DNA from: a virus
Lineage: Duplodnaviria; Caudoviricetes
Length of the DNA: 64,000 nt
Reading direction: 5' to 3' (one strand)
IMG/VR virus record: IMGVR_UViG_3300017951_000001
Span: 1 to 64,000 of that record
The notes under the pieces were generated by a model. That model worked only from the letters and a program-made list of their open reading frames with translations, was not told the DNA's origin and made no database searches. The translations under genes and the position numbers were made by a program. Positions within the stretch are counted from its first letter, which is position 1. Each line of letters starts with the position of its first letter. Of this stretch, positions 2,908-24,347 are shown one piece after another.

Positions 2908-3119
2908 CACGCAAGCAATGGCCACCAGCACAGACGCAGCGCAACAAAGAAGGCCACCAGCGTGCTGCTGAACTAGGTTTCACAACGTTGGGACCTACTC
3001 CAACAGGTTGGAGAAACGCAAAAGTCCAATGCATTGTCTGCGGCCACAGGTTGCCTTGGTATCACAGCAAGTATCAACGCTTGCACCGTGACCGTTGCAA
3101 AGCCGCGAAAGATAACTAA
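2904..3119 (+). CDS. Hypothetical zinc-ribbon protein
   Basis: CIVCGH motif, coupled start. Confidence 0.5.
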   Translation: MTRKQWPPAQTQRNKEGHQRAAELGFTTLGPTPTGWRNAKVQCIVCGHRLPWYHSKYQRLHRDRCKAAKDN

Positions 3120-3139
3120 CAACAACGACGGCGGTAAAA

Positions 3140-3911: not shown

Positions 3912-4471
3912 GCGACAAATATCAAAACATGCTCCAATTGATCGAGTTGGTCCGCCCGCTTGAAGCTCAAAGACAACATGCGTTAAATATCTACTTCAGT
4001 TTGTTTGACTCCTTGTTAGACTTCAAATTCGTTTCTGAAGACGTGTTTGACGCATTAGCAAACCAATATTGGTTCACCATAATTGATCCCTTGGAACAGC
4101 AGAACGATGTGTATGCCAAGGTGTTCGAGTTGATCGCATCGACAAAAAACCAAATTGATTCTGAACTTCAATCTGCAATGCGAATTGGTTGGCCTTCCAA
4201 CTTGATTTCAGACCTTGATCGATTGATGAATCGACTCAATGACATTGAGTCAATAACCCCGCGTTGTATATTGTCGGCATATGGACTCAAAGACCCTAGA
4301 TTCATACGTCAAGGCAAACATCAAAGGGAAGAAATACAACGAACCGTTTACCGGGAAATCCAAGAAAATATTGATTGTTTACCTTTGTACTTGAAAGTCA
4401 TTGACGACTTGTTGAATGAGTATTCCCGCAACCTCGTTGATTATCTCATTCAGAAAAGCATAGAAGATTGA
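3908..4471 (+). CDS. Hypothetical helical protein
   Basis: ATGA coupling at 3908 (MSDKYQ). Confidence 0.6.
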   Translation: MSDKYQNMLQLIELVRPLEAQRQHALNIYFSLFDSLLDFKFVSEDVFDALANQYWFTIIDPLEQQNDVYAKVFELIASTKNQIDSELQSAMRIGWPSNLISDLDRLMNRLNDIESITPRCILSAYGLKDPRFIRQGKHQREEIQRTVYREIQENIDCLPLYLKVIDDLLNEYSRNLVDYLIQKSIED

Positions 4472-4478
4472 ACATTAC

Positions 4479-4560
4479 GCTAGTGTGGTGGAACTGGTAG
4501 ACACAGGGGACTTAAAATCCCCCGGCTTTGACCGTGCGGGTTCGATTCCCGCCACTAGCA
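4479..4560 (+). tRNA. tRNA-Leu (anticodon TAA)
   Basis: Acceptor GCTAGTG/CACTAGC, anticodon arm GGGGA-CTTAAAA-TCCCC, long variable arm, T arm GCGGG-TTCGATT-CCCGC, discriminator A, no encoded CCA. Confidence 0.93.
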
Positions 4561-4615
4561 TTTGAACTGCAACACGGAACGTGTTATGCATCTCGAAACC
4601 AACCACGGGGTGTGA

Positions 4616-5776
4616 ATGTCGACTTACAAAGGTGATTCTCCTGGCAAAAAATTGAGCCGTTTTAGGGCATGGAGCCTGATTTTACAAGCCGCAAATCGGC
4701 TTCAAGTTCCATACCAGGGGGCTTATGTCCTTGCCGGGGAAGGCGGCGACTTGTCCGTCCTGCGGGGTTGGGGACTTCCCATGGATACGGTAACTGCCGT
4801 AGATTTCGACCAAGATTGGTTGGACTATTGCAATGAAGCATATCCGGGGGTTCAAACCGCTTGTGGCGAAGCCGGCGAATTGTCCGAACGGTTCAATTAC
4901 TCCTTCGCCCATCTTGATTTCTGCGGTGGTTTGACCGCAGCCAACATTCGAACGGTTGCTGATGTTGCATGGAACGTTGGCTCATTGCCTTCGATTATTG
5001 CCGTAACCATGCTCAAAGGCCGGGAGCACATGGGCGCTCCGCGTCGTGTTTTGACGGGTGGAATCCCAAGGGCTCGAAGGCGTCGCCACGCTATACATAA
5101 CCGGAAAATGGGCAACCCTGTTGGGGCTTACGTGTTGTCGGCTGAACGTTTGGACCCTCGCCGGTTGTTGGAAATTACAGAACAACAATTCCGGTCAAAC
5201 CTCCAATTCGAAAAATACATAGGCTTACAAACTGACGGCGATTACAACGGGAGCAAAATTTATCGCAGAAATGGAAGGTTAGCCCCGTTTGGTAAAGCCA
5301 TGCTTCGGGCAATGGCATTGCAGGGTGCCGCTCAAGCATTGTCGTCCGCTTTGTATGGTCGTCACCCCGGGGATGGACCCTGGTTTACATGCATCGGAGT
5401 CGTTGGGTATCACAGCCGATGCTCCGTGAGCGGCGGAACGCCGTTTTTTACTGCAATTTTTGCGATTACCCAGCCGCATGAATCCGAAAAAATCCAAAAA
5501 GAATTACTTCAAAACAATACTAATTTCTTGTTTCATTCTTTAGACATTGAACATTCATTAGGCCGTTTGGCTCCCACGGCTGTTGAATTTGCCAAGATGC
5601 TTCCCATTGAACAGGTCGCCGACTTGTTCGATGTGCCGGTGAAAACCGTCATTGCTTGGAAAGCCCATGCAACTCGGGGAACATACACATTGCCGCCCCT
5701 TATGAGATTGGGCCTTGAACCTGCTAATCTTTGGAAATCAAATTCTTATTCACTTTCACAAAGGGGGAACGAATGA
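4616..5776 (+). CDS. SAM-dependent methyltransferase-like protein with C-terminal HTH
   Basis: VLAGEGGD...VTAVD...AHLDFCGG Rossmann-type motifs; C-terminal IEQVADLFDVPVKTVIAWK HTH. Confidence 0.5.
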   Translation: MSTYKGDSPGKKLSRFRAWSLILQAANRLQVPYQGAYVLAGEGGDLSVLRGWGLPMDTVTAVDFDQDWLDYCNEAYPGVQTACGEAGELSERFNYSFAHLDFCGGLTAANIRTVADVAWNVGSLPSIIAVTMLKGREHMGAPRRVLTGGIPRARRRRHAIHNRKMGNPVGAYVLSAERLDPRRLLEITEQQFRSNLQFEKYIGLQTDGDYNGSKIYRRNGRLAPFGKAMLRAMALQGAAQALSSALYGRHPGDGPWFTCIGVVGYHSRCSVSGGTPFFTAIFAITQPHESEKIQKELLQNNTNFLFHSLDIEHSLGRLAPTAVEFAKMLPIEQVADLFDVPVKTVIAWKAHATRGTYTLPPLMRLGLEPANLWKSNSYSLSQRGNE

Positions 5777-6012
5777 GGCATGCCGGTTGGATGATTCGAA
5801 AAAACTACGACCGAGGAAATTGCTCTGACGGTTGGTGTGGTTCCTGCGCAAGATGCGGGGCTTGCCCCACAGCCGAAGACATTTTGACCGAAACGTTAGA
5901 TGAAATCAGACGTATCGAACAACAACTTGAAACCAATTCGAACACCGAAGATGCAGAATATTTGAGCTTGCTTCTCCGGATTCGGGATGAATTGGCTGAA
6001 CCGATCTTGTAA
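5773..6012 (+). CDS. Hypothetical Cys-rich protein
   Basis: CSDGWCGSCARCGAC; ATGA coupling. Confidence 0.5.
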   Translation: MRHAGWMIRKNYDRGNCSDGWCGSCARCGACPTAEDILTETLDEIRRIEQQLETNSNTEDAEYLSLLLRIRDELAEPIL

Positions 6013-6023
6013 GGGGAAAAACC

Positions 6024-6413
6024 ATGATTGGACTAGCAAATCGAGCCGTCGCCTGTCCCGGCTGGCGATGGCTACCGGGAATGCTCACCCAGCATGGGCG
6101 CATCTGTGGCGCGGGGTATCTGGTGCCTGATGATGTCGACGAGGACTGGTCAGGGCTATCAGCGGTGGACACGGTCGCCTGGGACGATCTTCTGCCCGAC
6201 CTACGCGACCCCGCCACGCTGGGCGGATTACTCGCGTTGGTGCGGGAGGCGTGGGGCGACCCCTATCTGTACGTGTTCTACACTTCTTACTTCTTCACGG
6301 TGAGCAGGGCTGGCACAGGGGGTGGGAACTGGTTGGACCCAAAAGGTCACGGAATGATTGAAGCGTCCACCGAAGCCGAGGCACTTGTCGCTGCGTTGGA
6401 GGCTGCGCCATGA
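6024..6413 (+). CDS. Hypothetical phage protein (paralog of 7790..8251)
   Basis: C..WRWLPGM...PDLRDPATLGGLL motif; higher GC than neighbours. Confidence 0.65.
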   Translation: MIGLANRAVACPGWRWLPGMLTQHGRICGAGYLVPDDVDEDWSGLSAVDTVAWDDLLPDLRDPATLGGLLALVREAWGDPYLYVFYTSYFFTVSRAGTGGGNWLDPKGHGMIEASTEAEALVAALEAAP

Positions 6414-6574
6414 ACATTACTATTGCTTTGCTCTTGAAATTGATAAAAACCAAGCAACCAGACGCGCTCGTACACATCGATTTGTGCGAAAACCTCATCC
6501 GGATTGACCCGCCCGGCAAACAAGGTAAGTGGTTAACAATCCAAGAAGCGGTTGAAATTTTCAAGGAAAAGTAA
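6410..6574 (+). CDS. Small hypothetical protein (54 aa, below ORF-track cutoff)
   Basis: ATGA overlap; MNITIALLLKLIKTKQPDALVHIDLCENLIRIDPPGKQGKWLTIQEAVEIFKEK. Confidence 0.45.
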   Translation: MNITIALLLKLIKTKQPDALVHIDLCENLIRIDPPGKQGKWLTIQEAVEIFKEK

Positions 6575-6669
6575 CCACGAAAAGCCAAGATTTTCGCCCC
6601 GTCGAACGGCGTGCCGGGTTATAATTTCCCGGGGCACGTTGCCCCGGAAAACCGCGGAAATACGCTTAC

Positions 6670-7173
6670 ATGCTTACAAAACAAACGACGGAACGATTGT
6701 TGTTCCTTCTGAATGATTTCCTCCAACATTACGTGAAGGAACAACACGAAAATACGTTCTGGCTTCATGCCGGAATGCATGAAATTCAAAGTTACGATGC
6801 GGAATGGCAACAATCCTTGCGTCAACAAGGGTTCATTCGGCATTTTACGCCACCGGGGCAAACTTACGGGTTTTGTCGTCCCCCGTCTACCTACCATTTG
6901 ACGCCGCATTTCTGGCGGACTGTACGCCCATGGGTTGACATCGTTCATCAACTCATCGTGAACGTATTCATCGACCACTACCCGGATGCCCTTCACGACA
7001 AAAAAAATATTTCCCAAAAATGGTTAGTCTACAGATTGACTTCCGTGCTTGGGACATTGAAAATCGTGACCGCTTGGGCCGATGCGCTATCCGAGCCTAA
7101 TGCGCTCCCCGTGGTCCCGGAACTTCACACCGACGTTGAACCGACATTCAATTGGCTAACCAACAACCCGTAA
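6670..7173 (+). CDS. Hypothetical protein
   Basis: 167 aa; strong CAA/GAA codon bias. Confidence 0.6.
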   Translation: MLTKQTTERLLFLLNDFLQHYVKEQHENTFWLHAGMHEIQSYDAEWQQSLRQQGFIRHFTPPGQTYGFCRPPSTYHLTPHFWRTVRPWVDIVHQLIVNVFIDHYPDALHDKKNISQKWLVYRLTSVLGTLKIVTAWADALSEPNALPVVPELHTDVEPTFNWLTNNP

Positions 7174-7184
7174 GGACAACAACC

Positions 7185-7787
7185 ATGCAGACATTTGTAC
7201 CTTTCGAAAGCAATTTTAACCAATGTGCATTCGTCTTAGACGACAACCGACTCAACAAGCAACGTTCCGAATGCCAAATCATCCTCAAAACCCTTCTCGG
7301 TTTGTATGACATCGAAACGGGAAAGGGTTGGCCCCACCATCCAGCTACGCGCATGTGGCTCGGGTATGAACCGGCGTTGTTGGGATACAGCATCGCCATC
7401 GCCCTCGAATGGGAGACACGGGGCCATGCGGACACTACGCTTGAATGGTTCGTGAACCTTGCTGACGACAAGGGGTTCGACATCGAAAACTACGAAATGC
7501 CCCACTGGTGGGGCGGCGGAATTCATGCTTCTCACCGAAGCAACCTGATGGAGAAAAACCCCGAATATTACTTGCGTTGGTGGACCGACAAGCCGGGTAT
7601 GAACTACGTGTGGCCATCGGGCAAAGAACGCCTCACTCCGCGTATCCCGCTCAAATCCGAACTTTGGGCTTGGATCAAAACGGGCGAAGGCACAACCATC
7701 GGCGATGGTGCTGACTACTTTGGCATTACCCCTCTCGAATTCATCCGAATCCGGGACCAAAAAAACACTGACCGTAAGGGGGCGTAA
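7185..7787 (+). CDS. Pyrimidine-dimer DNA glycosylase-like (DenV/MSMEG_6728 family)
   Basis: MQTFVP...LDDNRLNKQRSEC.QI...GWPHHPATRMWLGYEPAL...EWETRGHADT...HASHRSNL signature; AAGGA RBS. Confidence 0.8.
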   Translation: MQTFVPFESNFNQCAFVLDDNRLNKQRSECQIILKTLLGLYDIETGKGWPHHPATRMWLGYEPALLGYSIAIALEWETRGHADTTLEWFVNLADDKGFDIENYEMPHWWGGGIHASHRSNLMEKNPEYYLRWWTDKPGMNYVWPSGKERLTPRIPLKSELWAWIKTGEGTTIGDGADYFGITPLEFIRIRDQKNTDRKGA

Positions 7788-7789
7788 AA

Positions 7790-8251
7790 ATGAATATGAA
7801 CCACTGCGCTCAAAGAATCGTCAACTGCCCATTGTTCCGTTGGATCCCTGGGATGACTACAATCGCCGGCAAATCACTAATCGAATATTCAGAAGATTGC
7901 CCACAACAGGTTTGGTTGTTGGATGAACACGGCTTGGACGGGCCACAAATGGACCGAGTCAACGCGGACTCCATCTTCCCGGACCTGTACGATGAACACA
8001 CCGTCGATTGCCTTCTCAAAATTATCAACGACCACATCAAACCTTCAAAGGTGGTAATCGACCACCACGACTCGTTGTGGTACTTCGATGTTCCGTTAGT
8101 TTACCGCCGACTCGGCGCGAAAGCGGCACCGCCGTTGCGTTCAACTACGAACCCATTCATCGACTTGTATACGTTGACGCGAGCCGAACTGTTGATGTAC
8201 GGATTCGAAAATCTCTGGGCTTTCATCCAAAAGGGGCAGGGCAATGAATAA
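7790..8251 (+). CDS. Hypothetical phage protein (paralog of 6024..6413)
   Basis: CPLFRWIPGM...PDLYDEHTVDCLL motif. Confidence 0.62.
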   Translation: MNMNHCAQRIVNCPLFRWIPGMTTIAGKSLIEYSEDCPQQVWLLDEHGLDGPQMDRVNADSIFPDLYDEHTVDCLLKIINDHIKPSKVVIDHHDSLWYFDVPLVYRRLGAKAAPPLRSTTNPFIDLYTLTRAELLMYGFENLWAFIQKGQGNE

Positions 8252-8768
8252 GCTACAAACATCGTACGATATTCTCGATTCAATCCGAGAAACGAGCATG
8301 ACTCTCGCTGAATTGTCGGAAGATACAGGACGAAGCGAGAAAACGCTCGAAAAATGTATCTATCGTTTGTTAGAAAAACATGCGGTAAGGCGAACTCAAA
8401 TCCCATCCTTGACCCGTAAAGCCATATACCGGTACACTATCGAACCATACGGGTTGAACTTGTTGTGGGCTTGTGAAAGCGGATTCGTTGTGTCCCGAAT
8501 TGAGTCAACAGCAAGGTTACTTTTATTCATGCGTCAGAAACAGCGAACAACGTTCAACGAGTTAGCCGATGTGTGGCCATTTTCGGATACTTCGCTTCGA
8601 AACCGATTAGCTGGGTTTCAACGTTTGGACTACATTTGTTCCGAAGTCTCGCACATCGGTTCTCAAGAACTTGCATATGTACTCACCGACAAAGGCACAG
8701 CCGTCATCGACCGTTGGCCTGGATTTGACCCAAAAACTCCGGAAAATCACCATGTTCTCATTCATTGA
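8244..8768 (+). CDS. Tandem winged-helix DNA-binding protein
   Basis: Two wHTH-like repeats (TLAELSEDTGRSEKTLEKCIYRL; TFNELADVWPFSDTSLRNRLAGF...YVLTDKG). Confidence 0.65.
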   Translation: MNKLQTSYDILDSIRETSMTLAELSEDTGRSEKTLEKCIYRLLEKHAVRRTQIPSLTRKAIYRYTIEPYGLNLLWACESGFVVSRIESTARLLLFMRQKQRTTFNELADVWPFSDTSLRNRLAGFQRLDYICSEVSHIGSQELAYVLTDKGTAVIDRWPGFDPKTPENHHVLIH

Positions 8769-9555
8769 TGGACGCGAAACCCTTCCACGCCACCCGACGA
8801 AAAAGTTTGATACCCGCGCTGTTTCAGAACTCTGCGGGGGCGTGCTGCACCAAACGGCTGGTGGCGACAGCGCGTATAAATGCGCGTTGTACCACAGCGG
8901 TCCAAACCACGTTTCGGCTGATGGTTGCCCAGGTTTGTTGTATACGTTCTTCATTGAGATGGATGGAACTGTGTATTGGGCACATGACCTCGATAAACGT
9001 ACTTGGTCGCAAGGAGGAAATGGTTCCCCTGTTCCCGGGACGTCTGCCAACGGAAATTTCCTCGCCATTTGCCTCGGCGGGGATTTTGACGGACCCACGC
9101 ATGAAGGGAAAAACGGGCATCCGACTTTCGATCAATTCCATGCTGCGCTTTGTTTGTGGGGGCATTTGACCGGGCGGAGCAAAGACGCCCGCTTACCCGA
9201 CGAACTTTGGCAAGCTGTGCCATGCCCAACGGAATCCCTTTACGGGCATGACTCTTTCGGAAAAGCAAATTGTCCTGGAACGAGCGGAACAACGCTCGTT
9301 AACGCTATCAGGCATCACCTTGTTCTCCCCGAACCCGGAGCAACCGTGTCCGAAGGCGGAACTCGAATCGAAACTGACCGTGATTGGCAACTCGCACTTC
9401 AAAAAGCTGGGTTCAACCCGGGCACTATCGACGGTGTTTGGGGTCGCAATTCCCAGGCTGCTTTTTGCGAGTTTCAACGTTCCCGTTCGAACCTTGCGAA
9501 CGACGGGATCCGAGGGCCGATGTCCAAGAACGAACTCGAAAAGGCGATTCAATGA
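8752..9555 (+). CDS. Endolysin: N-acetylmuramoyl-L-alanine amidase with C-terminal peptidoglycan-binding domain
   Basis: VLHQTA...YTFFIEMDGTV...LAICLGGDF...LYGHDSFGKANCPG; C-terminal WQLALQKAGFNPGTIDGVWGRNSQAA. Confidence 0.85.
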   Translation: MFSFIDGRETLPRHPTKKFDTRAVSELCGGVLHQTAGGDSAYKCALYHSGPNHVSADGCPGLLYTFFIEMDGTVYWAHDLDKRTWSQGGNGSPVPGTSANGNFLAICLGGDFDGPTHEGKNGHPTFDQFHAALCLWGHLTGRSKDARLPDELWQAVPCPTESLYGHDSFGKANCPGTSGTTLVNAIRHHLVLPEPGATVSEGGTRIETDRDWQLALQKAGFNPGTIDGVWGRNSQAAFCEFQRSRSNLANDGIRGPMSKNELEKAIQ

Positions 9556-10664
9556 AAATTCTGGTGACCGGCGCAGCCGGGTTTGTCGGAAGTCACCTCG
9601 TTGATCATCTGCTCGAAGACGGTCACGAGGTTGTGGGTGTCGACAATTTGCTTACGGGCAATGTCGAAAACCTCCGCTCGGCTTCCCGAAATTCGAACTT
9701 CAAATTCTACAAATGCGACCTGACGAAAGTGTTTCCGGATGCGATTGAACGGTTGCCTTGGGGTTCGCATGATTACCACCGGATTTACCATTTGGCTTCG
9801 CCGGCATCGCCGCGCCATTACATGCGAAATAAACTCAATACCATCCGGATTAACTCGGTTGTTACTGATCAATTAGCAACGCATTGGCCTGCCGCCAGGA
9901 TTCTGTTCGCTTCGACGAGCGAAATCTATGGAGACCCGTTGGTTCACCCGCAGCCCGAAACGTATTGGGGCAATGTGAACCCGATTGGGCCTCGCGCATG
10001 CTACGATGAAGCGAAAAGATTGGGGGAAACTATCTTATGCGCGCATCGAGACGATAACAAAGTTGAAATTCGAATTGCTCGCATCTTCAACACTTACGGC
10101 CCGAGGATGGACCGTTACGACGGGAGGATGGTTCCGAACTTCATCACGCAAGCGATTTCAGGAAAACCATTGACAATCCACGGGGGAGGCGAACAAACCC
10201 GGTCATTGTGCTACGTTACCGATACAGTCGAAGCGTTGATAATGGTCATGGAAAGCGAAAGTTCCGAACCGTTCAACATCGGGACCGAAGACGAACGCAC
10301 AGTCAATGGCATGGCCGATGCCATTATCCAAAAAGTTGGAAATGAAAATACCTTTGTCCGGCACCCTCGCATGGTTGACGACCCCCGACAGCGGAAACCA
10401 AACACAATGCGGATTCGAACTGTATTGGGTTGGAATCCGAAGGTTTCATTCGATGTGGGGATTCAGCGGACTATTGAGTGGTTCAAAACGGTGATGGAGC
10501 AAGATAAAGCTCCGATGTTTGTTGTCGACAACCAAGGCAATCGCATCGCCCACGGCACGAAAGACTTCTGCAATGGATTTCTTCACGGTTTAGACCACGC
10601 ATTCCAATGTAAAATGGAAGCGACCGATACTACTGTGGTCTCTGGCCTTTCATTGGTGAAGTAA
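9552..10664 (+). CDS. UDP-glucuronate decarboxylase (UDP-xylose synthase), NAD-dependent epimerase/dehydratase family
   Basis: MKILVTGAAGFVGSHL, YHLASPASP, ASTSEIYGDP, YWGNVNPIGPRACYDEAKR, RIFNTYGPRM, QTRSLCYV, DDPRQRKP are UXS-type motifs. Confidence 0.85.
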   Translation: MKILVTGAAGFVGSHLVDHLLEDGHEVVGVDNLLTGNVENLRSASRNSNFKFYKCDLTKVFPDAIERLPWGSHDYHRIYHLASPASPRHYMRNKLNTIRINSVVTDQLATHWPAARILFASTSEIYGDPLVHPQPETYWGNVNPIGPRACYDEAKRLGETILCAHRDDNKVEIRIARIFNTYGPRMDRYDGRMVPNFITQAISGKPLTIHGGGEQTRSLCYVTDTVEALIMVMESESSEPFNIGTEDERTVNGMADAIIQKVGNENTFVRHPRMVDDPRQRKPNTMRIRTVLGWNPKVSFDVGIQRTIEWFKTVMEQDKAPMFVVDNQGNRIAHGTKDFCNGFLHGLDHAFQCKMEATDTTVVSGLSLVK

Positions 10665-10666
10665 AT

Positions 10667-10960
10667 ATGCCGCTTTATGAGTACCAATGCCTTGTTTGCG
10701 AATCAAACTTTGATCGGTTGGTTCGAAATGCTGACGTTCCGAACCCCATTTGCGACTCGTGCGGGGGAGACACTGAACGGAAAATCAGCGTACCCGCCAT
10801 CATATTCAAGGGTTCCGGTTGGGCGAGCGACGGGTATTCCGGAGGAAGCAGCATCGACGAAGCTCGTTCCGTCATCAACGACATGTGCCGGATGAAAGGC
10901 GTTTCGTCCGATACGTTGGAACGCACCGAAACCAAAGCGCGAGGCGGGTCCGTTGACTGA
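10667..10960 (+). CDS. FmdB-family zinc-ribbon protein
   Basis: MPLYEYQC..C...C..CGG....ISVPAIIFKGSGW. Confidence 0.8.
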   Translation: MPLYEYQCLVCESNFDRLVRNADVPNPICDSCGGDTERKISVPAIIFKGSGWASDGYSGGSSIDEARSVINDMCRMKGVSSDTLERTETKARGGSVD

Positions 10961-11531
10961 TATTGGGCCTGTAAACCATGCTTTGGGAGGGCGGGATCTG
11001 TTAGATCGGTATTACACCCCTGCCCCCGTTGCGCGGGCTTGTGTGGGGTTGTTGCGCATCGCCCCGCGTGCGCGGGTGTTGGAACCATCATCGGGCGGTG
11101 GCGCGTTTCTGGACGCGATTCTCGCGGCTCAACCGACGGCTGTGGTGCGTGCGTTTGATGTTGACCCCAACGCACCGTCGGCTGCGCGGTTCAAGGTCGA
11201 ACGGCAGGACTTCCTCCGGTATCGCCATCGGGGACCGATGTTTGACTGGATTATCGGAAACCCACCGTATTTCGAAGCCGAAGACCATGTGCGTAAAGCT
11301 TTACGCACGGGCAAGAACGTAGCTTTTTTATTGCGGTTGGGGTTTGCTGAATCCCAGGCACGGGTTCCTTTTTGGAAGGGGATTGGCAAATGTTTACGTG
11401 AAGTCCGGGTTTTGGCTTCGCGGCCTTCGTTTACGAATGGCGGAACCGATGCGACGGCGTATGGCTTTTTCATTTGGGCTCACAATCACCGGGGTCCGTC
11501 TCGAATTGTTCCTTGTTGGGATTTCAAATGA
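10953..11531 (+). CDS. Orphan N6-adenine (amino) DNA methyltransferase
   Basis: DRYYTP, VLEPSSGGGAF (motif I), IIGNPPY (motif IV), FLLRLGF, RPSFT...TD...Y..FIW. Confidence 0.8.
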   Translation: MTDIGPVNHALGGRDLLDRYYTPAPVARACVGLLRIAPRARVLEPSSGGGAFLDAILAAQPTAVVRAFDVDPNAPSAARFKVERQDFLRYRHRGPMFDWIIGNPPYFEAEDHVRKALRTGKNVAFLLRLGFAESQARVPFWKGIGKCLREVRVLASRPSFTNGGTDATAYGFFIWAHNHRGPSRIVPCWDFK

Positions 11532-12115
11532 CTCGCACTGAATTATTAAACTTAATTGCTAACTATATTTATGCCGAAACGTACCTTGAAATCGGAGTCC
11601 AACGGGGCGTCAATTTCCAAAAGGTAAACGTCAAACACAAAACGGGTGTAGATCCCGATACGAACTCGGCGGCTACAATCCACAAACCTTCGGATGAATT
11701 TTTCGGTTCGTTATCGAAAACTACTACTTTCGATTTAATCTTTGTGGATGGATTGCACCTTTGCGAACAGGTTATTCGCGATGTTCAACATTCCATCGAA
11801 CACCTTTCCCCTGGTGGGGTGATTGTTTGCCACGACGTCGATCCGCCGACCAAACAAGCGGCTTCGCGAACGCTTTGTTCGGGTGTTTGGTGCGGCGATG
11901 TATGGAAAGCATGGTTGTATTTACGCACGCGGCTTGATGCTGAAATGTTTTGCGTTGACACCGATTTGGGTTGCGGAGTCATCATTCCATCGGGCCGGAA
12001 CAACCGGTCAGATGCTGAACCGGCGAATTGGGAACAATTCCGAGCGAATCGCCGGTCGTTATTGAATTTGGTTCCTACGAACTATGCAATTGAACGGTTT
12101 GCAAACCGCGAGTAA
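11528..12115 (+). CDS. Class I SAM methyltransferase (Methyltransf_24-like, sugar O-methyltransferase type)
   Basis: YLEIGV..G, FDLIFVDGLH..EQV..D, GGVIVCHD, WCGDVWKA. Confidence 0.75.
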   Translation: MTRTELLNLIANYIYAETYLEIGVQRGVNFQKVNVKHKTGVDPDTNSAATIHKPSDEFFGSLSKTTTFDLIFVDGLHLCEQVIRDVQHSIEHLSPGGVIVCHDVDPPTKQAASRTLCSGVWCGDVWKAWLYLRTRLDAEMFCVDTDLGCGVIIPSGRNNRSDAEPANWEQFRANRRSLLNLVPTNYAIERFANRE

Positions 12116-12124
12116 AATCAATGC

Positions 12125-12322
12125 ATGCGACGGTTTTTCGTCTATGCATTTTTTTACTTACTGCTTTTGCTTATCATCTGTTCATTGATGGCAATGGTGG
12201 CTCGCACTTTCCACAACTTCCACCGTTCTTACCGTGATATGCGCCAACATCAAGCGATGTACGACGCAGCCGATTCGTTGATGTCAAACGCAATCCGATC
12301 GTACACATCGGCTAACCGGTAG
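12125..12322 (+). CDS. Small membrane protein
   Basis: Hydrophobic N-terminal FFVYAFFYLLLLLIICSLMAMV. Confidence 0.45.
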   Translation: MRRFFVYAFFYLLLLLIICSLMAMVARTFHNFHRSYRDMRQHQAMYDAADSLMSNAIRSYTSANR

Positions 12323-13914
12323 TGGTCTGCGGCGTTGCCTTCGACCCATCGGATGCGGCTGCGTTCTTCGTCGAGGATTCGGACGGAAGCTCGCATTTGA
12401 TCGGACCACCCAAACACAGTGAACACATCGGAAGGCCATTTCCGATTCCCGTTTCGTATGTCGTCGAACGTTGTATCCATCACCTGCGTTCGGTCGACCG
12501 AAACGACTCGTTCGGTCCAATTTTGCTTCATCCCGTATTTTTGTGAACCAATACGAGGCGTCGGGTGGAACCGGCAGAGCCATACAGCGCATCGGGTCGA
12601 TGTCGTCAACGCGTAATCCCGAAGCTCTTTTGCTTTTCGCGTTTCGGGCATTGCATCGATTACGCACACGTCAACGTGATAGCGTTCGATCATCGATTGA
12701 ACTTCATTGAATGACCTGCATGCGCCGACCCACAACGCCCGCCGGGTAAGGTTTCCGTTGTCGTCGTATTCGGCAGTCGAAATGGAAATATTTAAAATTG
12801 TTCCAACGTCGACTCCCATCGTTATCGTCTGATCCCGGTAGTGTTTTCCGCCGACATAGTCCAAGTCCGGGCCGGTTGCACATTCGAATAACATTTCATA
12901 TGAAATCCGAGCACCCGAATGTTCGAACGGTGCGCCCAAAACTGAAGTGTAAAACGTTGAAAGCTTCGCCGCGTCGGATTGGGCTTCGGTCCATTCGGCG
13001 AACAGCGTTTGATACGATTCATCCAAACAATCCAACCGAGAAATCCAATACCCTCGGCGGGAACGAGTGGGGTGTTGTGCTACCCATGCTCCGGGTTTTG
13101 CTCGCCGGTCGAAGGGTTTATTGCAAAACCGACAAACGGCGCGAGGGTCTTCGTGGTCGTGGCGTTGCGTATCCCGAAGTTGCCATTCCCCTCCGTCCGT
13201 TTTTTGGACGACGTTTTCGAACCAGTCAATCGGTTGCCATTTCGAACAACGCGAGCACCGATGAAACCAACGGCGACAATCCGAGGCATCGTATACTTTT
13301 GAAATGCCGGTGCGAGGCAAAGTCGGGTTACCCAACCGGAACATTTGCGGTGAGTCCGAAGCGCGAAGCCGGTCCCGTGCTTTTGCGAGGTTTTGTGGGT
13401 CGCATTGGTCGTACTCGTCAACGATCAAAGTGTCTGCTGAAAATTCTAGAAAATCTCCAGCGGTGTTCGACCCCAGGAACATGATGGCTCCCGAGCCGAA
13501 TCGCTTCAGTTTCAAGTTCCCCGGTTTGCGATTCGTTCGCCCAGCCGACGTATCAATCCCAGACAACACCCGATACATCGGGACGGATTGCAAAAGCGGG
13601 TTGATGCGCTGTTGAACAAACCGATCTCGGATTGTGTAAGTTGGAAGCACGTATGCGGCGATTCGGGATTGTTGACCAGCCATATGAATAATTAACTGAA
13701 TAAATAATTCGGATAATCCCGTTTGAACTGCTTTCCGAATGTCCGCTCCTTCGAGTTTGGGGAGGTCGCGGTACAGTTCAATCAAGTACGGCCGGTGTTT
13801 GAAGGACATGGGTTTGCCGCGCGTGTTTTGATGCGTCGTAAGCGAAAGCCCAATTAACGGTTCATCGTGAACAATTTGGGAAAGCAAATAGTGGTACGGG
13901 CCTGCGGGGTCCAT
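12250..13914 (-). CDS. terL: Terminase large subunit, lambda GpA-like
   Basis: RKAVQTGLSE Walker A variant, LIVDEYD Walker B, LGNPT motif, CSRC/CRFC zinc ribbon, MGVDVG nuclease Asp, C-terminal ADHYRLADVY. Confidence 0.88.
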   Translation of the reverse strand: MDPAGPYHYLLSQIVHDEPLIGLSLTTHQNTRGKPMSFKHRPYLIELYRDLPKLEGADIRKAVQTGLSELFIQLIIHMAGQQSRIAAYVLPTYTIRDRFVQQRINPLLQSVPMYRVLSGIDTSAGRTNRKPGNLKLKRFGSGAIMFLGSNTAGDFLEFSADTLIVDEYDQCDPQNLAKARDRLRASDSPQMFRLGNPTLPRTGISKVYDASDCRRWFHRCSRCSKWQPIDWFENVVQKTDGGEWQLRDTQRHDHEDPRAVCRFCNKPFDRRAKPGAWVAQHPTRSRRGYWISRLDCLDESYQTLFAEWTEAQSDAAKLSTFYTSVLGAPFEHSGARISYEMLFECATGPDLDYVGGKHYRDQTITMGVDVGTILNISISTAEYDDNGNLTRRALWVGACRSFNEVQSMIERYHVDVCVIDAMPETRKAKELRDYALTTSTRCAVWLCRFHPTPRIGSQKYGMKQNWTERVVSVDRTQVMDTTFDDIRNGNRKWPSDVFTVFGWSDQMRASVRILDEERSRIRWVEGNAADHYRLADVYDRIAFDINESAASYIA

Positions 13915-14108
13915 TTTTCTCCTTCCTAGAAAACTAGGGTAACACGAGCGGGGGGATAGCGTGTAGTGCTAGAAAATGCGGAGGTGGGGTGCTCCAAATA
14001 TGGGCCCTGCGCCCGAAAGCCATGGTAGACCCCCCCTTCTCACGCGGTCCCCGAAAACGACGGTTCAACCCCCACAATATTGAATGCGCACCCCCGTTGG
14101 CACCCCTG

Positions 14109-14160
14109 GCATTGGTTGCCGGCTGCGGGTAGGGGTGTGCGCGATATGCGCAACCAATGC
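14109..14160. other. Candidate cos/packaging cleavage site: 11-bp inverted repeat with 30-bp spacer
   Basis: GCATTGGTTGC (14109-14119) and GCAACCAATGC (14150-14160), about 200 bp upstream of terL, at the edge of the AG/CT-free tract. Confidence 0.35.
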
Positions 14161-14530
14161 GCGTTTGGTTGCACGGCGACGGGCAACGCAACCACCCCGC
14201 GTGCGTGGGATTCAAAAAAACCCCGTTGCGCGGCCGATAATTTTGAACAATGCAACCGCGCAACATGGGCGCAACGTGCGCGGGTTGACCGACCGAACCC
14301 CCGCACCGGTACGGATCCCCATGATCGAACCATTAACGGCGTTAAAACGCGATTTTCACGATCACCCCATTGAGCCCCCGTAAACGGCCCCACAACGGCC
14401 CGCGCGGTTTCCACACCCGAACGTGTGACCGAACCCCGTTCAACGCCCGTACGGTACCGGGAACGGCCGGGAAACACCCGATCCGGCGGGGTTCACCAAC
14501 CCCCGATCCGGGGGCCGAACGGCGGCCACG

Positions 14531-14556
14531 AAAAAACCCCGGGCCGAAACCCGGGG
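14531..14556 (-). terminator. Intrinsic terminator 2 downstream of the 14632 gene
   Basis: CCCCGGG-CCGAAA-CCCGGGG stem, with an A6 run giving a U tract on the minus strand. Confidence 0.7.
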
Positions 14557-14587
14557 CGATATTGCCGATTGTTGGGGTTGAAACGGG

Positions 14588-14615
14588 AAAAACCCCGGGG
14601 CGGCGTGCCCCGGGG
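14588..14615 (-). terminator. Intrinsic terminator 1 downstream of the 14632 gene
   Basis: CCCCGGGG-CGGCGTG-CCCCGGGG stem plus A5 run. Confidence 0.7.
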
Positions 14616-14631
14616 CGGTCCGAACGTGCGG

Positions 14632-15633
14632 TTACACGACACCGGCCGCAACGTCGGCGTCCGACCGGGGATCGTCGGTACCGGCAACGGCCCGCGCGGC
14701 GACCGTGTACCGCCATGTCACGCCGTACGCGCACCCCGGGCACCCGTACCGCCGGGGATCGGCGGGGGCGTTGACATCGTACGCCGCCACCGTTGCCCCG
14801 GGTTGATACGTGCGGCCATTGTCGCCGGTGTCGGCGGGGATCGCGGCCGCGTCCAACACGGCGGCAACGGCGGCCGCAACGGTGGCGACCGAATCGGACA
14901 TCACAACCCACCGGGAACGGGCGGTACGGTACGCGCGGGTTTCGGGCATACGGCGCCCGTTTTCACCGACGATCGCGCGCAATTCGATCATGTTGTCGCG
15001 TCGTTTGGTGTACGTTCCGCCCATAACGCCCATCAAACCCCGGATAACGGACGACACGCGGACATCATCAACCCACACGACAACGGGAACGGGCCCCGCC
15101 GCCGGGGCCGCCGTGGGGGCCGGTGCCGGGGCCGTGGGGGCGTCCACCGTTGCCGCCGGGGCCGTGGGGGCCGGGGCCGTGTCGGTGGCCGTGTCGGTGG
15201 CCGTGGGGGCCGTGGGGGCCGTGTCGGCGACCGGGGCCGGGGCCGGGGCCGGTGCGGTCAACGCCGCACGATCGGCGGCGGCGGCCGCGCGGATCCGGGC
15301 CATGGCGGTCAACGGGTGGTCGGCCGTGTCGTCGGCGGCCGTGTCGTCGGCGGCCGTGTCGTCGGCGGCCGTGTCGGCGGTGTCGGCGGTGTCGGCGGTG
15401 TCGGCGGTGTCGGCCGTGTCGGCCACGGCGGCAACGGCGGCCGCAACCCGGCGGGCCGTTGCGGCGATCGTGCGGGGGTTGGTGTCGGCAACGGCGGCGG
15501 TGATGTCGGCGGCCGTTCCCGTGATCCGGTTGCCATCGATCCCGATCGGGGCACCGGTGTTGATGGTGTGATCGGCGATCGCCCGAACGGCGGCGGCGGT
15601 TGCGGTGATGGTGATGGTGATGGTGTTGGCCAT
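14632..15633 (-). CDS. Low-complexity Ala/Thr/Asp/Pro-rich early protein (333 aa)
   Basis: Start MANTITIT at 15633 after a CAACCACAACC leader; ADT and AADDT tandem repeats; globular-looking C-terminus with CPGC; followed by two terminators. Confidence 0.6.
   Translation of the reverse strand: MANTITITITATAAAVRAIADHTINTGAPIGIDGNRITGTAADITAAVADTNPRTIAATARRVAAAVAAVADTADTADTADTADTADTAADDTAADDTAADDTADHPLTAMARIRAAAAADRAALTAPAPAPAPVADTAPTAPTATDTATDTAPAPTAPAATVDAPTAPAPAPTAAPAAGPVPVVVWVDDVRVSSVIRGLMGVMGGTYTKRRDNMIELRAIVGENGRRMPETRAYRTARSRWVVMSDSVATVAAAVAAVLDAAAIPADTGDNGRTYQPGATVAAYDVNAPADPRRYGCPGCAYGVTWRYTVAARAVAGTDDPRSDADVAAGVV
15325..15422 (+). repeat. In-frame tandem repeats (15-bp GTGTCGTCGGCGGCC x3; 9-bp GTGTCGGCG about x5)
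   Basis: Read directly; encode AADDT and ADT on the minus strand. Confidence 0.85.
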
Positions 15634-16094
15634 GGTGGGGTTCCCCCGGTTGTGGTTGTGGTTGTGGCGCCGACCCACGGCGGGCCGGCACCGATGCAAT
15701 AACGACCACGGGGTTACCGTGCATTATCCGCCGGGAACGCCGATAATGCCCGAAACGGGGGCCGGCGGGGATCGGTTCACATAACAAACGACACGCGTCA
15801 CACCGGGCCGCTGTCGCCGAAAACCGGATTTCAAATAACGTTTTACGCGTAGTCCTCACCCGAAAACCCGAACCCGGGGCAACCGGATCCGGGTTAATCG
15901 GGTCCGATCGTCCAATTGTGGCGGTCAAACCCCGACAAAGCGGCATTCGGTATCCGATTTCCGCCCTGGACCCGATCACAAATGACACGTGATCGTTTCA
16001 CATTTGTCACAAAACGGGGCCACTGAATGCCATTCACTGACGATCGTTGACGATCGGGGTGCAACGGATCGTTGCGATTTTCGGGATCGGCACC

Positions 16095-16958
16095 GGCCGA
16101 AAACCCGGGTTCAATCGTTGGACCGATCGGCCGAAAACGGGGGTTCAATCGTTCGGGACGTTCGGGGGCAACCGGCCGAAAAACGGGGTTCAATCGTTCC
16201 CGGCCACCGGCCGAAAATGGGGGTTCAATCGTAACGGCCGGATCGGCGGGCCGGCCGAAAACCGGGGTTCTAACGTGGAGGGCAAGCAACCGAGAAAGGG
16301 GCTTCAACCGTGAGTCGCTAGCACTGGTATGGCTATTGCAGCGGGTTGCAACAGACATGCCAGCCTAACACTGGTATGGCTATTGCAGCGCTACAAAAGA
16401 CATGCCAGCCTAGCATTGGTATGACTGTTGCAGCGCTACAACAGACGTGCCAAGTCGAGCCTTCTGCACAGAGCATGCCAGGCATGACTGTTGCAGATGC
16501 AGCCATCGGCCGATTCGTGGCGTTCTCCCGTGAGCGGCTGGATCGCACGGTTCAACCCCGCGATCCAGGGATAGGCCGAGATGCCGCGTCGAACCACGGG
16601 AAAGGACGAGCCGCCGAGAAGGGTGGTTGAATGCCGCATGCTGGGCAGCCGGCGAGAACAAGGGTTCAACCACGGGAATAAGCCAACCGGCGAGAAGGGG
16701 GGTCTCACGCGGCTTGCCAGCCGATCGGCGAGAAAGGGGGTTGCACCGGGTTGCTCGGGCAGCCGGCGAGAAGGCGGGAAGACCCCCGACAACCAGCCGA
16801 TCGCCGAGAAGGGGGGTCTGACCGTGCATCTCGGGCAGTCGCCGAGAAGGGGGGTTCTACCGGGATCCCACCAGAAGGGGGGTTCTACCGGCACTTCGTC
16901 GAGAAGGGGGGTTCTACCGTGCATCTCGGCGACTGCGCGAAAACAAGGGTTCTACCGT
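16095..16958 (+). repeat. Dispersed direct-repeat family, about 15 copies of a 22-25 bp motif with 35-45 bp period
   Basis: Left copies GGCCGAAAA-N-GGGGTTCAATCGT at 16095, 16129, 16174, 16209, 16253; right copies GCCGAGAAGGGGGTTCTACCG-like from about 16290 to 16958. Confidence 0.85.
16324..16453. repeat. Three tandem 38-40 bp imperfect palindromes, period 45-47 bp
   Basis: e.g. TTGGTATGACTGTTGCAGCGCTACAACAGACGTGCCAA (16416-16453); copies at 16324 and 16371; partial fourth copy near 16475. Confidence 0.85.
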
Positions 16959-17773
16959 AAGCCCTTTTTGCTGCCGGCAGCCGAAAGTGAAGATTCCCGG
17001 ATGAGGAAAAGTGTGCTTTCCCGGGGTTGGAATTCCGGGGAAAGTTGAGTTCCTAAAACCCAACGGAAAGTAGTTGTCGCAAAACTAAACTTTGAAAGTG
17101 AAAGAAAAAGTGAGTTGAAAAGTAACCTTGCAGAATCAGTTCGCAGTTCAAGTTGAAACTTGACTGGAGTTGAGGCACGACTTCGAGTTGAGTTACGAGT
17201 TGGAAGTGCACGACTTCCAGCCCGAAGTTCAGTTTGAAAGTCCAACCTGCAAGTTGTGGAAGTTCAACTTGAAAGTCCAATGGAGTTTCGAATCGAGTAA
17301 CTTTTCGAGTTCCTTTTGAAGTGACTTCGAGTTCCATAAGTGGCACTCGAATCAGGTTGATTTTGTTTTCGCTTGCACATTCCGCGTATGCAATGCGAGT
17401 CGCGATTGAACCTTACTGCCCGCACTTGCCTTTTGCATACCAATGGCAGTAAAATCAAAAGGTTGCTTTACCGCACTCGACGAGAACGGGAAGCGAGTTT
17501 GAAGGCCCGGGAGTGTGCAGGCGAGTCCGTACTTGACTGACAACTGGAGTGCAAAGCCGAGTTCGATTCCTGCTCGAATTGGTTTTGGGAACGACTTGAT
17601 GCAGCGACTCGACGGAGGTCTGGACTCGGCCGGAAACCGCAGGTTTTAATCCGATTTGCTTTTCGCTGATCGGTTTTCCGGGAACCCGGCCGAAGTCGAG
17701 TTCGAGTTCCGAGTCGCAGTCAGTTTAGAAGCCAAAAGCGATACTGGCTTTTAGGACGGCACCGGAAAGTAGT

Positions 17774-17816
17774 CATAGTTTCTAGCGGTCATAGTTTCTA
17801 GTAACCATAGTTTTTA
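17774..17816 (+). repeat. CATAGTTTCT array 1 (3 copies, 16-bp period)
   Basis: Copies at 17774, 17790 and 17806 (the last is CATAGTTTTT). Confidence 0.85.
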
Positions 17817-17875
17817 GGGACTCATTTTTACTTTCATCTGAAATTCCTTTCGACTAAAACCTTTGTTTGAAGCAA

Positions 17876-17901
17876 AGCAAAACCCGGGCATAACGCCCGG
17901 G
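17876..17901 (-). terminator. Intrinsic terminator
   Basis: CCCGGGC-ATAAC-GCCCGGG with A-rich flank, downstream of 17915..18169. Confidence 0.65.
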
Positions 17902-22218: not shown

Positions 22219-23655
22219 CTATGACCTATTGAAAGCATACACGAATTGCCTGCCGCCTCGGACTCGAATGCTTCCTCCGAACCTCCGAACCATTCGGCTT
22301 GCTCTGGACATGGGACAACTTTGGGCCCCGAATGGACCTTTACCATTCACTTTGAGTTTCATTAGTGCTTTGTAAAATTCAGTAAACGGCTGACCGTGGT
22401 GTGCGATCAGGCATTCAGCGAAAGCTTCTTTGTTCCCATCTTTCGGAGTCCAAACGCGCTCTGCATCTAACCTTTCGAACAACTCGCTGTATTGTTCTGC
22501 CCAAAGACGAGAATTGAAGGTTGAACGCACGTAATCGCTTACGACTCTTCCCCAGTGTTTTCTTTCTCGCTCAACCGTCAACAATCGCCTCAACATGGCT
22601 TTGCACTCTGAAGCATCATCGAACAGGTAAGGGTAATTGGTTGTGGCTCGGCCCGTGATCTCGGGGAAAGTACAATCGTTGGGAGCCACCAACGGCTGAC
22701 CCAATGCCATTGATTCCACTGCGCTGATGCAGAACGTCTCATACATCGAGTGCGTCACGTTCAAGTCGCATCCACGAAGTGCTTCAAGATATTCGTCGCG
22801 TGTTCTGACGAGGCAAATCTCTGCCCAAGGATATTGAGCAAGATATGCAGTGTTTTCTCTGTTGGTGTTCATGTAGCGAAGTTTGAACTTTACTCCTTCC
22901 TGGTAAAGTTCATCCAACACCTGCATGGTGTCTCGCCAGCGTTTATACCCCTGCAATCTGTGATTGTAAGCAATTACAGGCACTTCATTGCCGGTCTCGT
23001 GGTACTCAAGTGATTGTTCAAGTGTACCTAAATAAATCCGGCTTCCAGATTGCTCAATTTTCTGAACTAGGTCTGGATGAAGTGCCTCCCGGCAGTTGTC
23101 GAGAACAAGAGTCCGAGTGTAATCGGAGTTGTAGACATTCCAGTCGGCCAGGATTGTTCCATTCAGTTGAGTCCACCAAACGTTCGCCATAGCGTCGACG
23201 TTGTAGGGAAGGGATTTGTGAATGGTGTAGTTGTGTGCTGCAACGACAACAGGTTTGAACGTATCGTTGTAGGAACTGTCCCCACTGAACTTGATGTTTC
23301 CTGCCATCTCTACGAGATTGCACCAAGCTACATCAATTGCTACGCTCCGAAAGAGTTTGTCGTACCAGATCGAGTCAAAGTGAACAGCCCCTCCGTGCCG
23401 ACGGGGATTCATGCGCTGTGAGACCCGCGTCACATTAGGCAACGAGAAAAAGCCGTCGTCGTCGTATTTGAACTTGCTCTTTGAGTCAGGGAAAGGAACC
23501 CAAAAATGCCAGTCGGGTCTTACCTCTGCCATTGCGCGGACAAAAGCAGAAGTAAGGACATAGTTACTGTCACTGTTTACTTCTGCTTTCGAGAACATGT
23601 ACTGGCACCAAACTTGGAGCCCGCCAACTCGGTCTTCCACCCATTCCAACGTCAT
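22219..23655 (-). CDS. GT-B fold glycosyltransferase (GT4-like)
   Basis: IAYNHRLQGYK, SMYETFCISAVESMALGQPLVAP (E-x7-E), about 70-aa basic C-terminal extension. Confidence 0.8.
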   Translation of the reverse strand: MTLEWVEDRVGGLQVWCQYMFSKAEVNSDSNYVLTSAFVRAMAEVRPDWHFWVPFPDSKSKFKYDDDGFFSLPNVTRVSQRMNPRRHGGAVHFDSIWYDKLFRSVAIDVAWCNLVEMAGNIKFSGDSSYNDTFKPVVVAAHNYTIHKSLPYNVDAMANVWWTQLNGTILADWNVYNSDYTRTLVLDNCREALHPDLVQKIEQSGSRIYLGTLEQSLEYHETGNEVPVIAYNHRLQGYKRWRDTMQVLDELYQEGVKFKLRYMNTNRENTAYLAQYPWAEICLVRTRDEYLEALRGCDLNVTHSMYETFCISAVESMALGQPLVAPNDCTFPEITGRATTNYPYLFDDASECKAMLRRLLTVERERKHWGRVVSDYVRSTFNSRLWAEQYSELFERLDAERVWTPKDGNKEAFAECLIAHHGQPFTEFYKALMKLKVNGKGPFGAQSCPMSRASRMVRRFGGSIRVRGGRQFVYAFNRS

Positions 23656-24248
23656 TTTGCCTGCACCTTTAACTTCAGTCCGTGTTCGTTCGCGAAGGCG
23701 ATAACAAGCGATTTGAGTTGTGGGTCGTTCGCTAAATCAGGAGGCCCCGTAAGAATAAACGAAAAGGACTTTGCATCAGCGAATTGTGTATCACTGGCAA
23801 AGTCCCCGTCGTCCTCGTCGTCTTCATCAAACAACTCGAAGACCGAGTCAGCGTTTTGCATGAGGTCTTCGAGTTCTTGTGTTGAGAACCCGAGGTTGTG
23901 CAGTTCCGTTGAGGATTCTTGGAGATCGGAAAGGATCTTACTCAATGTAGGGTCATCCCACATTGCTAATTCGCCGATCTTGTTATCCGCCAATGCAAGT
24001 GCTTTTGCTTCATCAACTGTCAGATCCAAGAACCGAACAGGAACCTGTTCCATACCCAGAGAAAGCGCTGCTTTGAGTCGCGTATGACCTGCAATGACCA
24101 TGTTGTCTGCACGGCGAGCAACAATCGGTGCAGCAAAGCCGAATCTCCGGATTGAGTCTGCGACAGGTTCAATGGATTGTTGATTGATTCTCGGGTTTTC
24201 GTCCCAAGGGACTAACGAATTGGGATCGACGAATTCTGCTGCTTCCAT
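23652..24248 (-). CDS. ParB/Srx N-terminal domain protein 1
   Basis: LVPWDENPR...SIRRFGFAAPIV...VIAGHTRLKAA...ALALADNK; ATGA-coupled to the GT. Confidence 0.85.
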   Translation of the reverse strand: MEAAEFVDPNSLVPWDENPRINQQSIEPVADSIRRFGFAAPIVARRADNMVIAGHTRLKAALSLGMEQVPVRFLDLTVDEAKALALADNKIGELAMWDDPTLSKILSDLQESSTELHNLGFSTQELEDLMQNADSVFELFDEDDEDDGDFASDTQFADAKSFSFILTGPPDLANDPQLKSLVIAFANEHGLKLKVQAK

Positions 24249-24347
24249 TGGTGACACCTCATTGCGTTTCTGGGGACGTTGCCGATTCACGGGCACCGAA
24301 CCATGGACCCACACCGGAAAACGCCTGATACATGCGTTTCTGAAACC

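Follow-up and report, generated by a model that had tools for sequence, protein, structure and literature searches.

Absence of the AG/CT dinucleotide step from a gene cassette of an uncultured marine phage and its avoidance in related phages

Avoidance of short DNA words by phages is normally read as the footprint of restriction enzymes with targets of 4–8 bp. The genome of an uncultured marine phage (IMG/VR record IMGVR_UViG_3300017951_000001; 76,254 bp; hereafter G000) poses a different question: why should one of its gene cassettes do without a single dinucleotide step, i.e., AG on either strand (AG/CT)? The window that was analyzed comprises the first 64,000 nucleotides (nt) of this record, and the cassette lies in a tract of the window from which AG/CT is nearly, and in its core completely, absent. 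The footprint is that of one dinucleotide step, absolute over the cassette and strong over the 14–16 kb that was analyzed from each of the two closest relatives of G000, L004 and L005 (13.9 kb in the case of L005), and there is a real chance that the agent behind it is new.

AG/CT occurs 5704 times in the window, with a mean spacing of ~11 bp. The single largest gap between two sites measures 1438 bp, from 14373 to 15811, and it is flanked by the gaps next in size, of 242 bp (14131–14373) and 233 bp (16037–16270). Outside this region, the largest gap is 77 bp in the window and 84 bp in the whole 76-kb genome. Two intervals, given with their G+C content (GC), describe the phenomenon:

14375..15810, no strand: core without any AG or CT; 0 sites against 145 expected; GC 0.72; retained in the related assembly L124
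14133..16270, no strand: AG/CT-poor tract; 8 sites against 236 expected; GC 0.67

From its own base composition, the core is expected to contain 78.5 AG and 67.1 CT dinucleotides and contains neither, whereas GA (0.75), TC (0.98), and TA (0.77) all occur in it. The segment 14133–15810 has one site only, at 14373, and the sites in 15811–16270 are at 15811, 15851, 15855, 15939, 15966, 16023, 16037, and 16270. An earlier note on this stretch, made from its letters alone, had claimed zero sites in 14375–15810, one in 14133–15810, about seven in 15811–16270, normal occurrence of GA, TC, and TA, and a composition-based expectation of ~100 sites; these claims are borne out, with eight sites in the third segment when both end positions are included and an expectation of 145.

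The ban is real and far beyond chance. Over 1.4–2.1 kb, 0–8 sites are found, vs. ~90 per kb in the rest of the genome, and the Poisson probability is ~1e-63 for the core and ~1e-88 for 14133–16270. When the tandem repeats in the core are masked, 1017 unique nt are left, in which 109.5 sites are expected and none is found. The earlier note had proposed a comparison of all dinucleotides and had considered that a low-order Markov process might reproduce the gap. No other dinucleotide pair has a comparable gap anywhere in the 76,254-bp genome, the next being a TA gap of 655 bp inside the same GC-rich tract, and under a first-order Markov chain trained on L005, the relative poorest in AG, a run of 1436 nt free of AG/CT still has P = 1e-31.

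An assembly artefact or chimera, a concern of the earlier note as well, can be rejected, since the tract is found in three independent assemblies from different samples. L119 (JGI 3300022934) is identical to G000 over 14133–15091, with five differing positions elsewhere, and ends where the tandem repeats begin. The whole tract is also contained in L124 (ENA ERZ27313156; 76,218 bp), a contig with 99.7% identity over 15.4 kb, in which the gap measures 1411 bp. The tract of L124 differs from that of G000 by six substitutions (15056–15118) and by two deletions in the repeats, one of 12 and one of 15 bp, and no AG or CT arises from any of these changes.

The tract forms the left two thirds of a GC-rich island (14.0–17.05 kb; GC 0.61–0.72, vs. 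0.50 for the genome) and is a self-contained cassette, composed of a control region with five repeats, one acidic gene without known homologs (ORFan), and two terminators. It borders on terL, the gene for the large terminase. Its parts, with those of the open reading frame (ORF), are as follows:

14109..14160, no strand: perfect 11-nt inverted repeat with a 30-nt spacer at the left boundary, ~200 bp upstream of terL; candidate protein site, possibly cos
14536..14557, minus strand: second hairpin plus T-run resembling an intrinsic terminator, which lies downstream of the ORF and insulates it from terL
14593–14615, with T-run at 14585–14592 read on the minus strand: first terminator hairpin, downstream of the ORF; part of a listed span, 14585..15615, that runs through the ORF body
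14632..15633, minus strand: ORFan gene, 333 amino acids; product rich in Ala/Thr/Asp/Pro repeats; isoelectric point 4.5; net charge -12
15096..15450, no strand: tandem 9-, 12-, and 15-bp repeats within the ORF, encoding acidic (ADT)n, (AADDT)n, and (AP)n runs; copy number varies between strains

Approximately 1.1 kb of the tract is non-coding DNA. As this DNA, the terminators, and the repeats are free of AG/CT as well, the ban cannot be a codon effect, in agreement with the earlier note, which had ruled out codon and amino-acid effects. That note had listed coding DNA, terminators, promoter, and intergenic DNA as covered by the gap; an ORF, two terminators, an upstream control region, and the non-coding DNA are borne out. 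The ORFan protein itself could be encoded with no AG/CT at all.

Evidence for recoding comes from a family of repeats that straddles the right edge of the tract:

14013..14073, minus strand: one repeat copy in inverted orientation, located at the island's left edge
16091..16275, plus strand: five iteron-like repeats in AG/CT-free form, core CCGAAAACNGGGGTTCAATCG; 0, 0, 0, 0, and 1 AG/CT per copy
16284..16957, plus strand: eight further copies, which bear AG/CT, core CCGAGAAGGGGGGTTCTACCG; 2–4 AG/CT per copy; right part of the island, where AG/CT is normal

The repeat is ~27 nt long; five copies lie upstream of the ORF and eight more to the right of 16270, and the edge of the tract falls between two copies. 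From outside to inside the tract, the consensus changes from GAGAAG to GAAAAC and from TTCTA to TTCAA, i.e., at the AG and CT positions. Since these changes are of several kinds (G>A, G>C, and T>A), they argue for selection rather than for one mutational process. A pattern search of viral contigs for the iteron gave three single chance matches only. A separate “leader” motif occurred at the chance rate in a simplified search, with three matches where 3.5 were expected. The non-coding DNA that adjoins the tract on the right (16270–17900; ~1.6 kb) consists of tandem arrays (45-bp units, three times; 38-bp units, six times; and 29-bp and 22-bp units). Its function may be that of an origin, or it may resemble a centromere or an injection stop.

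In the tract, a trait of the lineage reaches its extreme. Expressed as rho*, the symmetrized relative abundance of Karlin, AG/CT amounts to 0.72 in the G000 genome, where individual genes form a mosaic from 0.43 to 1.0, to 0.43 in L004 (a TARA contig with 76% identity in TerL), and to 0.36 in most of L005 (75% identity in TerL). In ~110 further loci with at most 61% identity in TerL, rho* is 0.75–1.16, and none of them has a long AG/CT gap. Searches with TerL in viral, metagenome, and genome collections yielded no members of this subclade beyond L004 and L005; a search with the von Willebrand factor A (VWA) protein of G000 found only the protein itself, and one with its primase-helicase found one relative (51% identity), in which AG/CT is normal. 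The terminase gene of G000 is located as follows:

12250..13914, minus strand: large terminase TerL, lambda gpA type; adjoins the tract; AG/CT rho* 0.48

Within genes, the avoidance is visible as synonymous codon choice, as in the TerL orthologs of L004 and L005. TerL of L005 uses TTG 33 times for Leu vs. CTN three times, GAA 22 vs. GAG three times, and CAA 23 vs. CAG twice, and GCT, CCT, and ACT are absent, whereas the TerL orthologs of L006 and L011 favor GAG, CAG, and CTN. The AG plus CT counts in terL, relative to the minimum that the protein requires, are 50/18 in L005, 82/13 in L004, 100/12 in G000, and 172/24 in L006. However, intergenic DNA is depleted to the same extent as coding DNA (rho* 0.38 vs. 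0.43 in L004 and 0.41 vs. 0.36 in L005), and on the sense strand of terL in both relatives CT is as depleted as AG. Therefore, the target of the avoidance is duplex DNA, and not codons or mRNA.

The avoidance concerns AG/CT as such. In L004 and L005, all 4-mers containing AG/CT are depleted, with observed/expected ratios of 0.38–0.44 vs. 1.28–1.35 for words free of it; L004 has neither AGCT nor CTAG, and L005 and L006 have no CTAG. Palindromes without AG/CT are abundant in the tract, including GATC (29 vs. 6.4 expected), CGATCG (9 vs. 0.7), CGGCCG (19 vs. 3.1), CCCGGG, and GGATCC. Hence, this is not a general avoidance of restriction sites. GATC is also enriched in L004 (125 vs. 53) and L006 (380 vs. 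77.5; CGATCG 51 vs. 6.6), GATC and CGATCG are not over-represented in the G000 backbone or L005, and CCCGGG is absent from L004 and L006.

The distribution of AG/CT along the genomes is uneven. To the left of the tract in G000, its density rises steadily with distance over ~18 kb, across a plus-strand block and terL (window 1–14000), from rho* 0.5 to 0.87 (Spearman 0.73, p = 6e-4), whereas at the right edge the return to normal is abrupt. In L005, rho* switches from 0.93 (1–2100) to 0.36 (2100–13851) at the start of terL, where GC drops from ~0.65 to 0.53. This junction is a second sharp compositional break adjoining a terminase gene, with a polarity opposite to that in G000.

What could impose such a ban? 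We favor, tentatively and as something still short of probable, selection exerted by an external, host-side reader of AG/CT in DNA, which would be strictest in a cassette that has to work while the phage still lacks protection. The cassette would be kept clear of the duplex step by purifying selection on the DNA itself, and the same pressure would act more weakly on the rest of G000 and strongly on the sampled parts of L004 and L005. As the agent we infer most likely a host defense, e.g., a nickase or nuclease that acts very frequently, or else some reader whose specificity is ~2 bp. The cassette would tolerate no hit, possibly by being the first DNA to enter or to be expressed, and the ORFan product could be a countermeasure. 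The one-sided gradient, i.e., a slow rise to the left and a jump to the right, is as expected if the cost of a site falls with distance from one end. The reading draws on published work in which the outcome of restriction depends only on motifs within the DNA injected first, as in the region of phages T5 and BF23 that enters by first-step transfer (PMC12455610; PMC10644984), and would extend the site avoidance described for the leading regions of T5 and Murciavirus to a dinucleotide. Of the two hypotheses of the earlier note, a host defense target and a modification by the phage itself, the former fits the depletion at synonymous and intergenic sites of L004 and L005 better.

Several observations weigh against this reading. 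The GC of the tract is 0.70, vs. 0.50 in the backbone, and words unrelated to AG/CT differ as well (GATC 4.5-fold, TCGA 0.5-fold), which points to a foreign origin rather than to recoding in place. Although it adjoins the tract, terL is far above its AG/CT floor (100 vs. 12). A partial purge, to a rho* of ~0.4, would be of no help against a nuclease cutting at each site, and we know of no bacterial defense specific for AG/CT. No sigma-70-type (host-type) promoter was found upstream of the ORF in the promoter scan. A position of the tract at a first-injected end, putative in the earlier note, is no more than a conjecture. The portal gene spans the record ends (1–1129; 74771–76254) and includes the 123-bp direct terminal repeat, which is therefore an overlap of a circular assembly and no virion end; all three assemblies circularize or break at arbitrary points. 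Moreover, in L004, L005, and L006 the order around terL is TerS-like, small gene, TerL, Zn-ribbon, methylases, whereas in G000 the TerS-like pair is at 1346–2318 and terL has moved, in inverted orientation, to beyond the methylase genes, ~10 kb away (methylase genes and terL together, 10667–13914). Thus, the tract lies at a rearranged junction, and its position is not conserved. An alignment of G000, L004, and L005 revealed no conserved counterpart of the 11-nt inverted repeat, or of any cos-like element, upstream of terL in the two relatives.

The role of the ORFan protein in counteracting defense is likewise a guess, since the protein has neither a homolog nor a confident fold. It consists of 27% Ala, 14% Thr, and 10.5% Asp, with the charge concentrated in residues 61–180, and the GC of its gene at the three codon positions (0.70/0.65/0.85) resembles that of coding DNA. 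No homolog was found in a word-indexed set of 5.8 billion proteins, and an exhaustive HMMER search over 1.8 billion representatives gave two low-complexity matches only; no family was found in Pfam, PHROGs, or PADLOC. The AlphaFold2 single-sequence model had a mean predicted local distance difference test (pLDDT) score of 45.6. The differences between G000 and L124 cluster in the repeat region of the ORF (15056–15335), with six substitutions in 63 bp and the two whole-unit deletions. Since whole units are lost between near-identical strains, the acidic repeat protein varies in length. For the DNA, a blastn search with 12–18 kb as the query found no match among 50,697 phage records, and Rfam at a permissive threshold gave sub-threshold noise only.

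More generally, it is possible, though we consider it doubtful, that marine and perhaps other bacteria deploy an agent recognizing the single step AG/CT on DNA, whether an enzyme, a small molecule, or a system that depends on modification, and that some phage lineages purge the step, completely so in a small “bootstrap” cassette whose function is required ahead of any protection. If true, the target would belong to a new class, with a length below that of all bacterial defense motifs known, and, if the agent is a host factor, it would be the defense with the shortest target known.

Alternatively, the cassette may escape a mark that the phage itself places. If AG/CT were modified throughout the genome, e.g., by N6-methyladenine at AG or by a sugar, a cassette kept free of the word would enter as ordinary DNA, readable by host polymerase, terminase, or regulators, or ignored by modification-dependent nucleases. 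We regard this as rather unlikely, but phages would then keep an unmarked starter region, and under either explanation the sequence offers a clean, testable handle. A candidate is the only clear DNA-modifying enzyme found in G000:

10953..11531, plus strand: small N6-adenine DNA methylase, 192 amino acids, with an NPPY motif

This methylase has no obvious target-recognition domain. G000 further encodes a second S-adenosylmethionine (SAM)-dependent methylase, a nucleotide-sugar epimerase/dehydratase, a glycosyltransferase of the GT4 type next to a ParB_N gene, and a MazG pyrophosphohydrolase, which count in favor of such a mark, as does the existence of an AG-specific methylase (M.CviQII; PMC3299994). 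However, the complete G000 genome lacks TGT/DpdA (PF01702) and QueC (PF06508), in searches of which the controls were positive, as well as a thymidylate-synthase-like hydroxymethylase (PF00303). In addition, a protective mark of their own would give the relatives no reason for a wide purge of AG/CT, and the methylase does not track the trait, as L004 has a homolog but none was seen in L005 within its 13.9 kb. Other genes of G000 encode a T7-like primase-helicase, a PD-(D/E)XK nuclease, an SNF2-type helicase, a MoxR-VWA pair, and three ParB_N proteins. The latter stand alone (23652–24314, 29511–30137, and 30134–30850) and match the N-terminal part of the PADLOC Type II methylase model PDLC03229. 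The GT4 gene that adjoins one of them has normal AG/CT (rho* 0.95), which suggests that it was acquired recently. A T4 endonuclease V-like pyrimidine-dimer glycosylase and the MazG protein are encoded at 7152–7787 and 27906–28247, respectively.

The compositional evidence raises another option, i.e., an import of the tract by recombination, with the repeat array as a possible site of the exchange. The donor would be a GC-rich relative, as yet unsampled, in which avoidance of AG/CT is near-complete. The position of the tract in G000 would then have no specific meaning, and the ban would reflect a genome-wide regime of the donor acting on weakly constrained DNA. The mosaic of AG/CT among the genes of G000, the switch in L005, the foreign GC and word usage of the tract (rich in GATC and CGATCG, like L004 and L006), the location of its right edge between two repeat copies, and the rearranged synteny of terL are all in line with an import. 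Nevertheless, we consider it improbable. No sampled genome comes close, as even the best relatives give the above probability of 1e-31 for such a gap, and their conserved genes are three to six times above the AG/CT floor. Furthermore, the repeats of the tract belong to the same family as those in the adjoining DNA with normal AG/CT, and an import would move the puzzle to the donor without solving it.

Context-dependent mutation, such as methylation of C in CpT followed by deamination, a process proposed for large DNA viruses of invertebrates, or the action of an AG-editing enzyme, might erode the step without selection. The combination of AG/CT depletion with an excess of CG (1.25–1.45) and AA/TT (1.3–2.0) does resemble a known signature poor in CpT/ApG and rich in CpG (PMC4219779), and intergenic and synonymous sites are equally depleted. 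A bias at equilibrium, however, cannot yield zero sites in 1.4 kb beside DNA of normal density; changes of three kinds (G>A, G>C, and T>A) distinguish the copies of the repeat; and erosion of C to T would lower GC, whereas the tract has 70% GC. A single mutational process is therefore rejected, and mutation in general is highly improbable as the cause.

An equally slim prospect is that a small molecule from the host or its neighbors, a DNA binder or alkylator with a preference for this dinucleotide step, damages incoming phage DNA at AG and thus acts as a chemical defense. Such compounds read ~2–3 bp, and altromycin B prefers 5'-AG. DNA-intercalating metabolites block early phage infection (PMC13250531), and alkylators of the pluramycin type intercalate 5' of the guanine that they alkylate (PMC2425490). 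Yet, classical intercalators prefer pyrimidine-purine steps, and for G000 the compound is hypothetical and the idea speculative.

Finally, a cause at the level of RNA or translation (codon usage, avoidance of Shine-Dalgarno-like sequences, or an RNase cutting AG or CU) could be read from the codon choice described above and from the sense strands of G000, where AG often shows a stronger depletion than CT. This, like an artefact, has a negligible chance and is largely excluded, since the ban extends to both strands and to the ~1.1 kb of non-coding DNA, intergenic DNA and sense-strand CT are equally depleted in the relatives, and the three assemblies concur.

How does this case compare with known systems? 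We found no paper on a dinucleotide ban in a phage segment or on purging of AG/CT in phages, and the nearest published items are the avoidance of motifs in leading regions, the CviQII enzymes, and a signature of invertebrate viruses. The first-step-transfer region of T5 and BF23 and the first-injected region of Murciavirus (Autographiviridae) are, like the tract, bounded stretches without a word that the rest of the genome carries. They contain early, often anti-defense genes, followed by repeat-rich non-coding DNA as at the injection stop signal of T5 (PMC12455610; PMC10644984; bioRxiv 10.1101/866236). The words missing there, however, are restriction motifs of 5–13 bp, and the order of entry was shown by experiment, whereas in G000 the word is a single dinucleotide step and early entry is a proposal. 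Also, the leading regions of T5 and T7 have host-type promoters or homologs of A1, A2, dmp, or Ocr, neither of which was found for the ORF by the promoter scan and the family and homolog searches; no homolog of a T5 or T7 early gene is present.

The earlier note held that a defense or modification with a 2-bp target was not recognizable as described, which was too strong. In chlorella virus NYs-1, M.CviQII methylates AG and Nt.CviQII nicks R^AG, both on duplex DNA (PMC3299994; PMC3017599). This system differs from the phage lineage in that it belongs to a virus of a eukaryote and protects by methylation. The R^AG rule does not fit here, since YAG is at least as depleted as RAG in the relatives (relative abundance of AAG, GAG, CAG, and TAG: 0.69, 0.42, 0.29, and 0.42 in L004; 0.72, 0.32, 0.31, and 0.12 in L005) and all NAG trinucleotides are absent from the tract. 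A nickase would be expected to make close sites on opposite strands specially avoided. Opposite-strand pairs at 1–4 nt are below the label-shuffle expectation in L004 and L005, but equally so in L006, an AG-normal control, so that the spacing does not discriminate.

Large DNA viruses of invertebrates show the same depletion of CpT/ApG with an excess of CpG, independent of codons (PMC4219779), comparable to the values in the G000 lineage (AG/CT 0.36–0.72; CG 1.25–1.45). That signature is moderate, genome-wide, found in viruses of eukaryotes, and partly ascribed to non-CpG methylation by the host, whereas G000 is a tailed phage, with a gpA-type terminase and a portal, and shows a sharp, absolute, local ban. 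The likeness is thus one of resemblance and not of membership.

Hypermodification in phages, i.e., 7-deazaguanine placed by DpdA at GA and GGC, and Mom, provides marks with a context of 2–3 bp, but the motif differs, and G000 lacks DpdA/TGT and QueC. Classical avoidance of restriction sites is also selection on DNA words by synonymous recoding, and the losses of AGCT and CTAG are comparable to it. There, the avoidance is confined to specific palindromes of 4–6 bp, whereas in the phages described here it extends to every word that contains AG/CT, while other palindromes are enriched in the tract.

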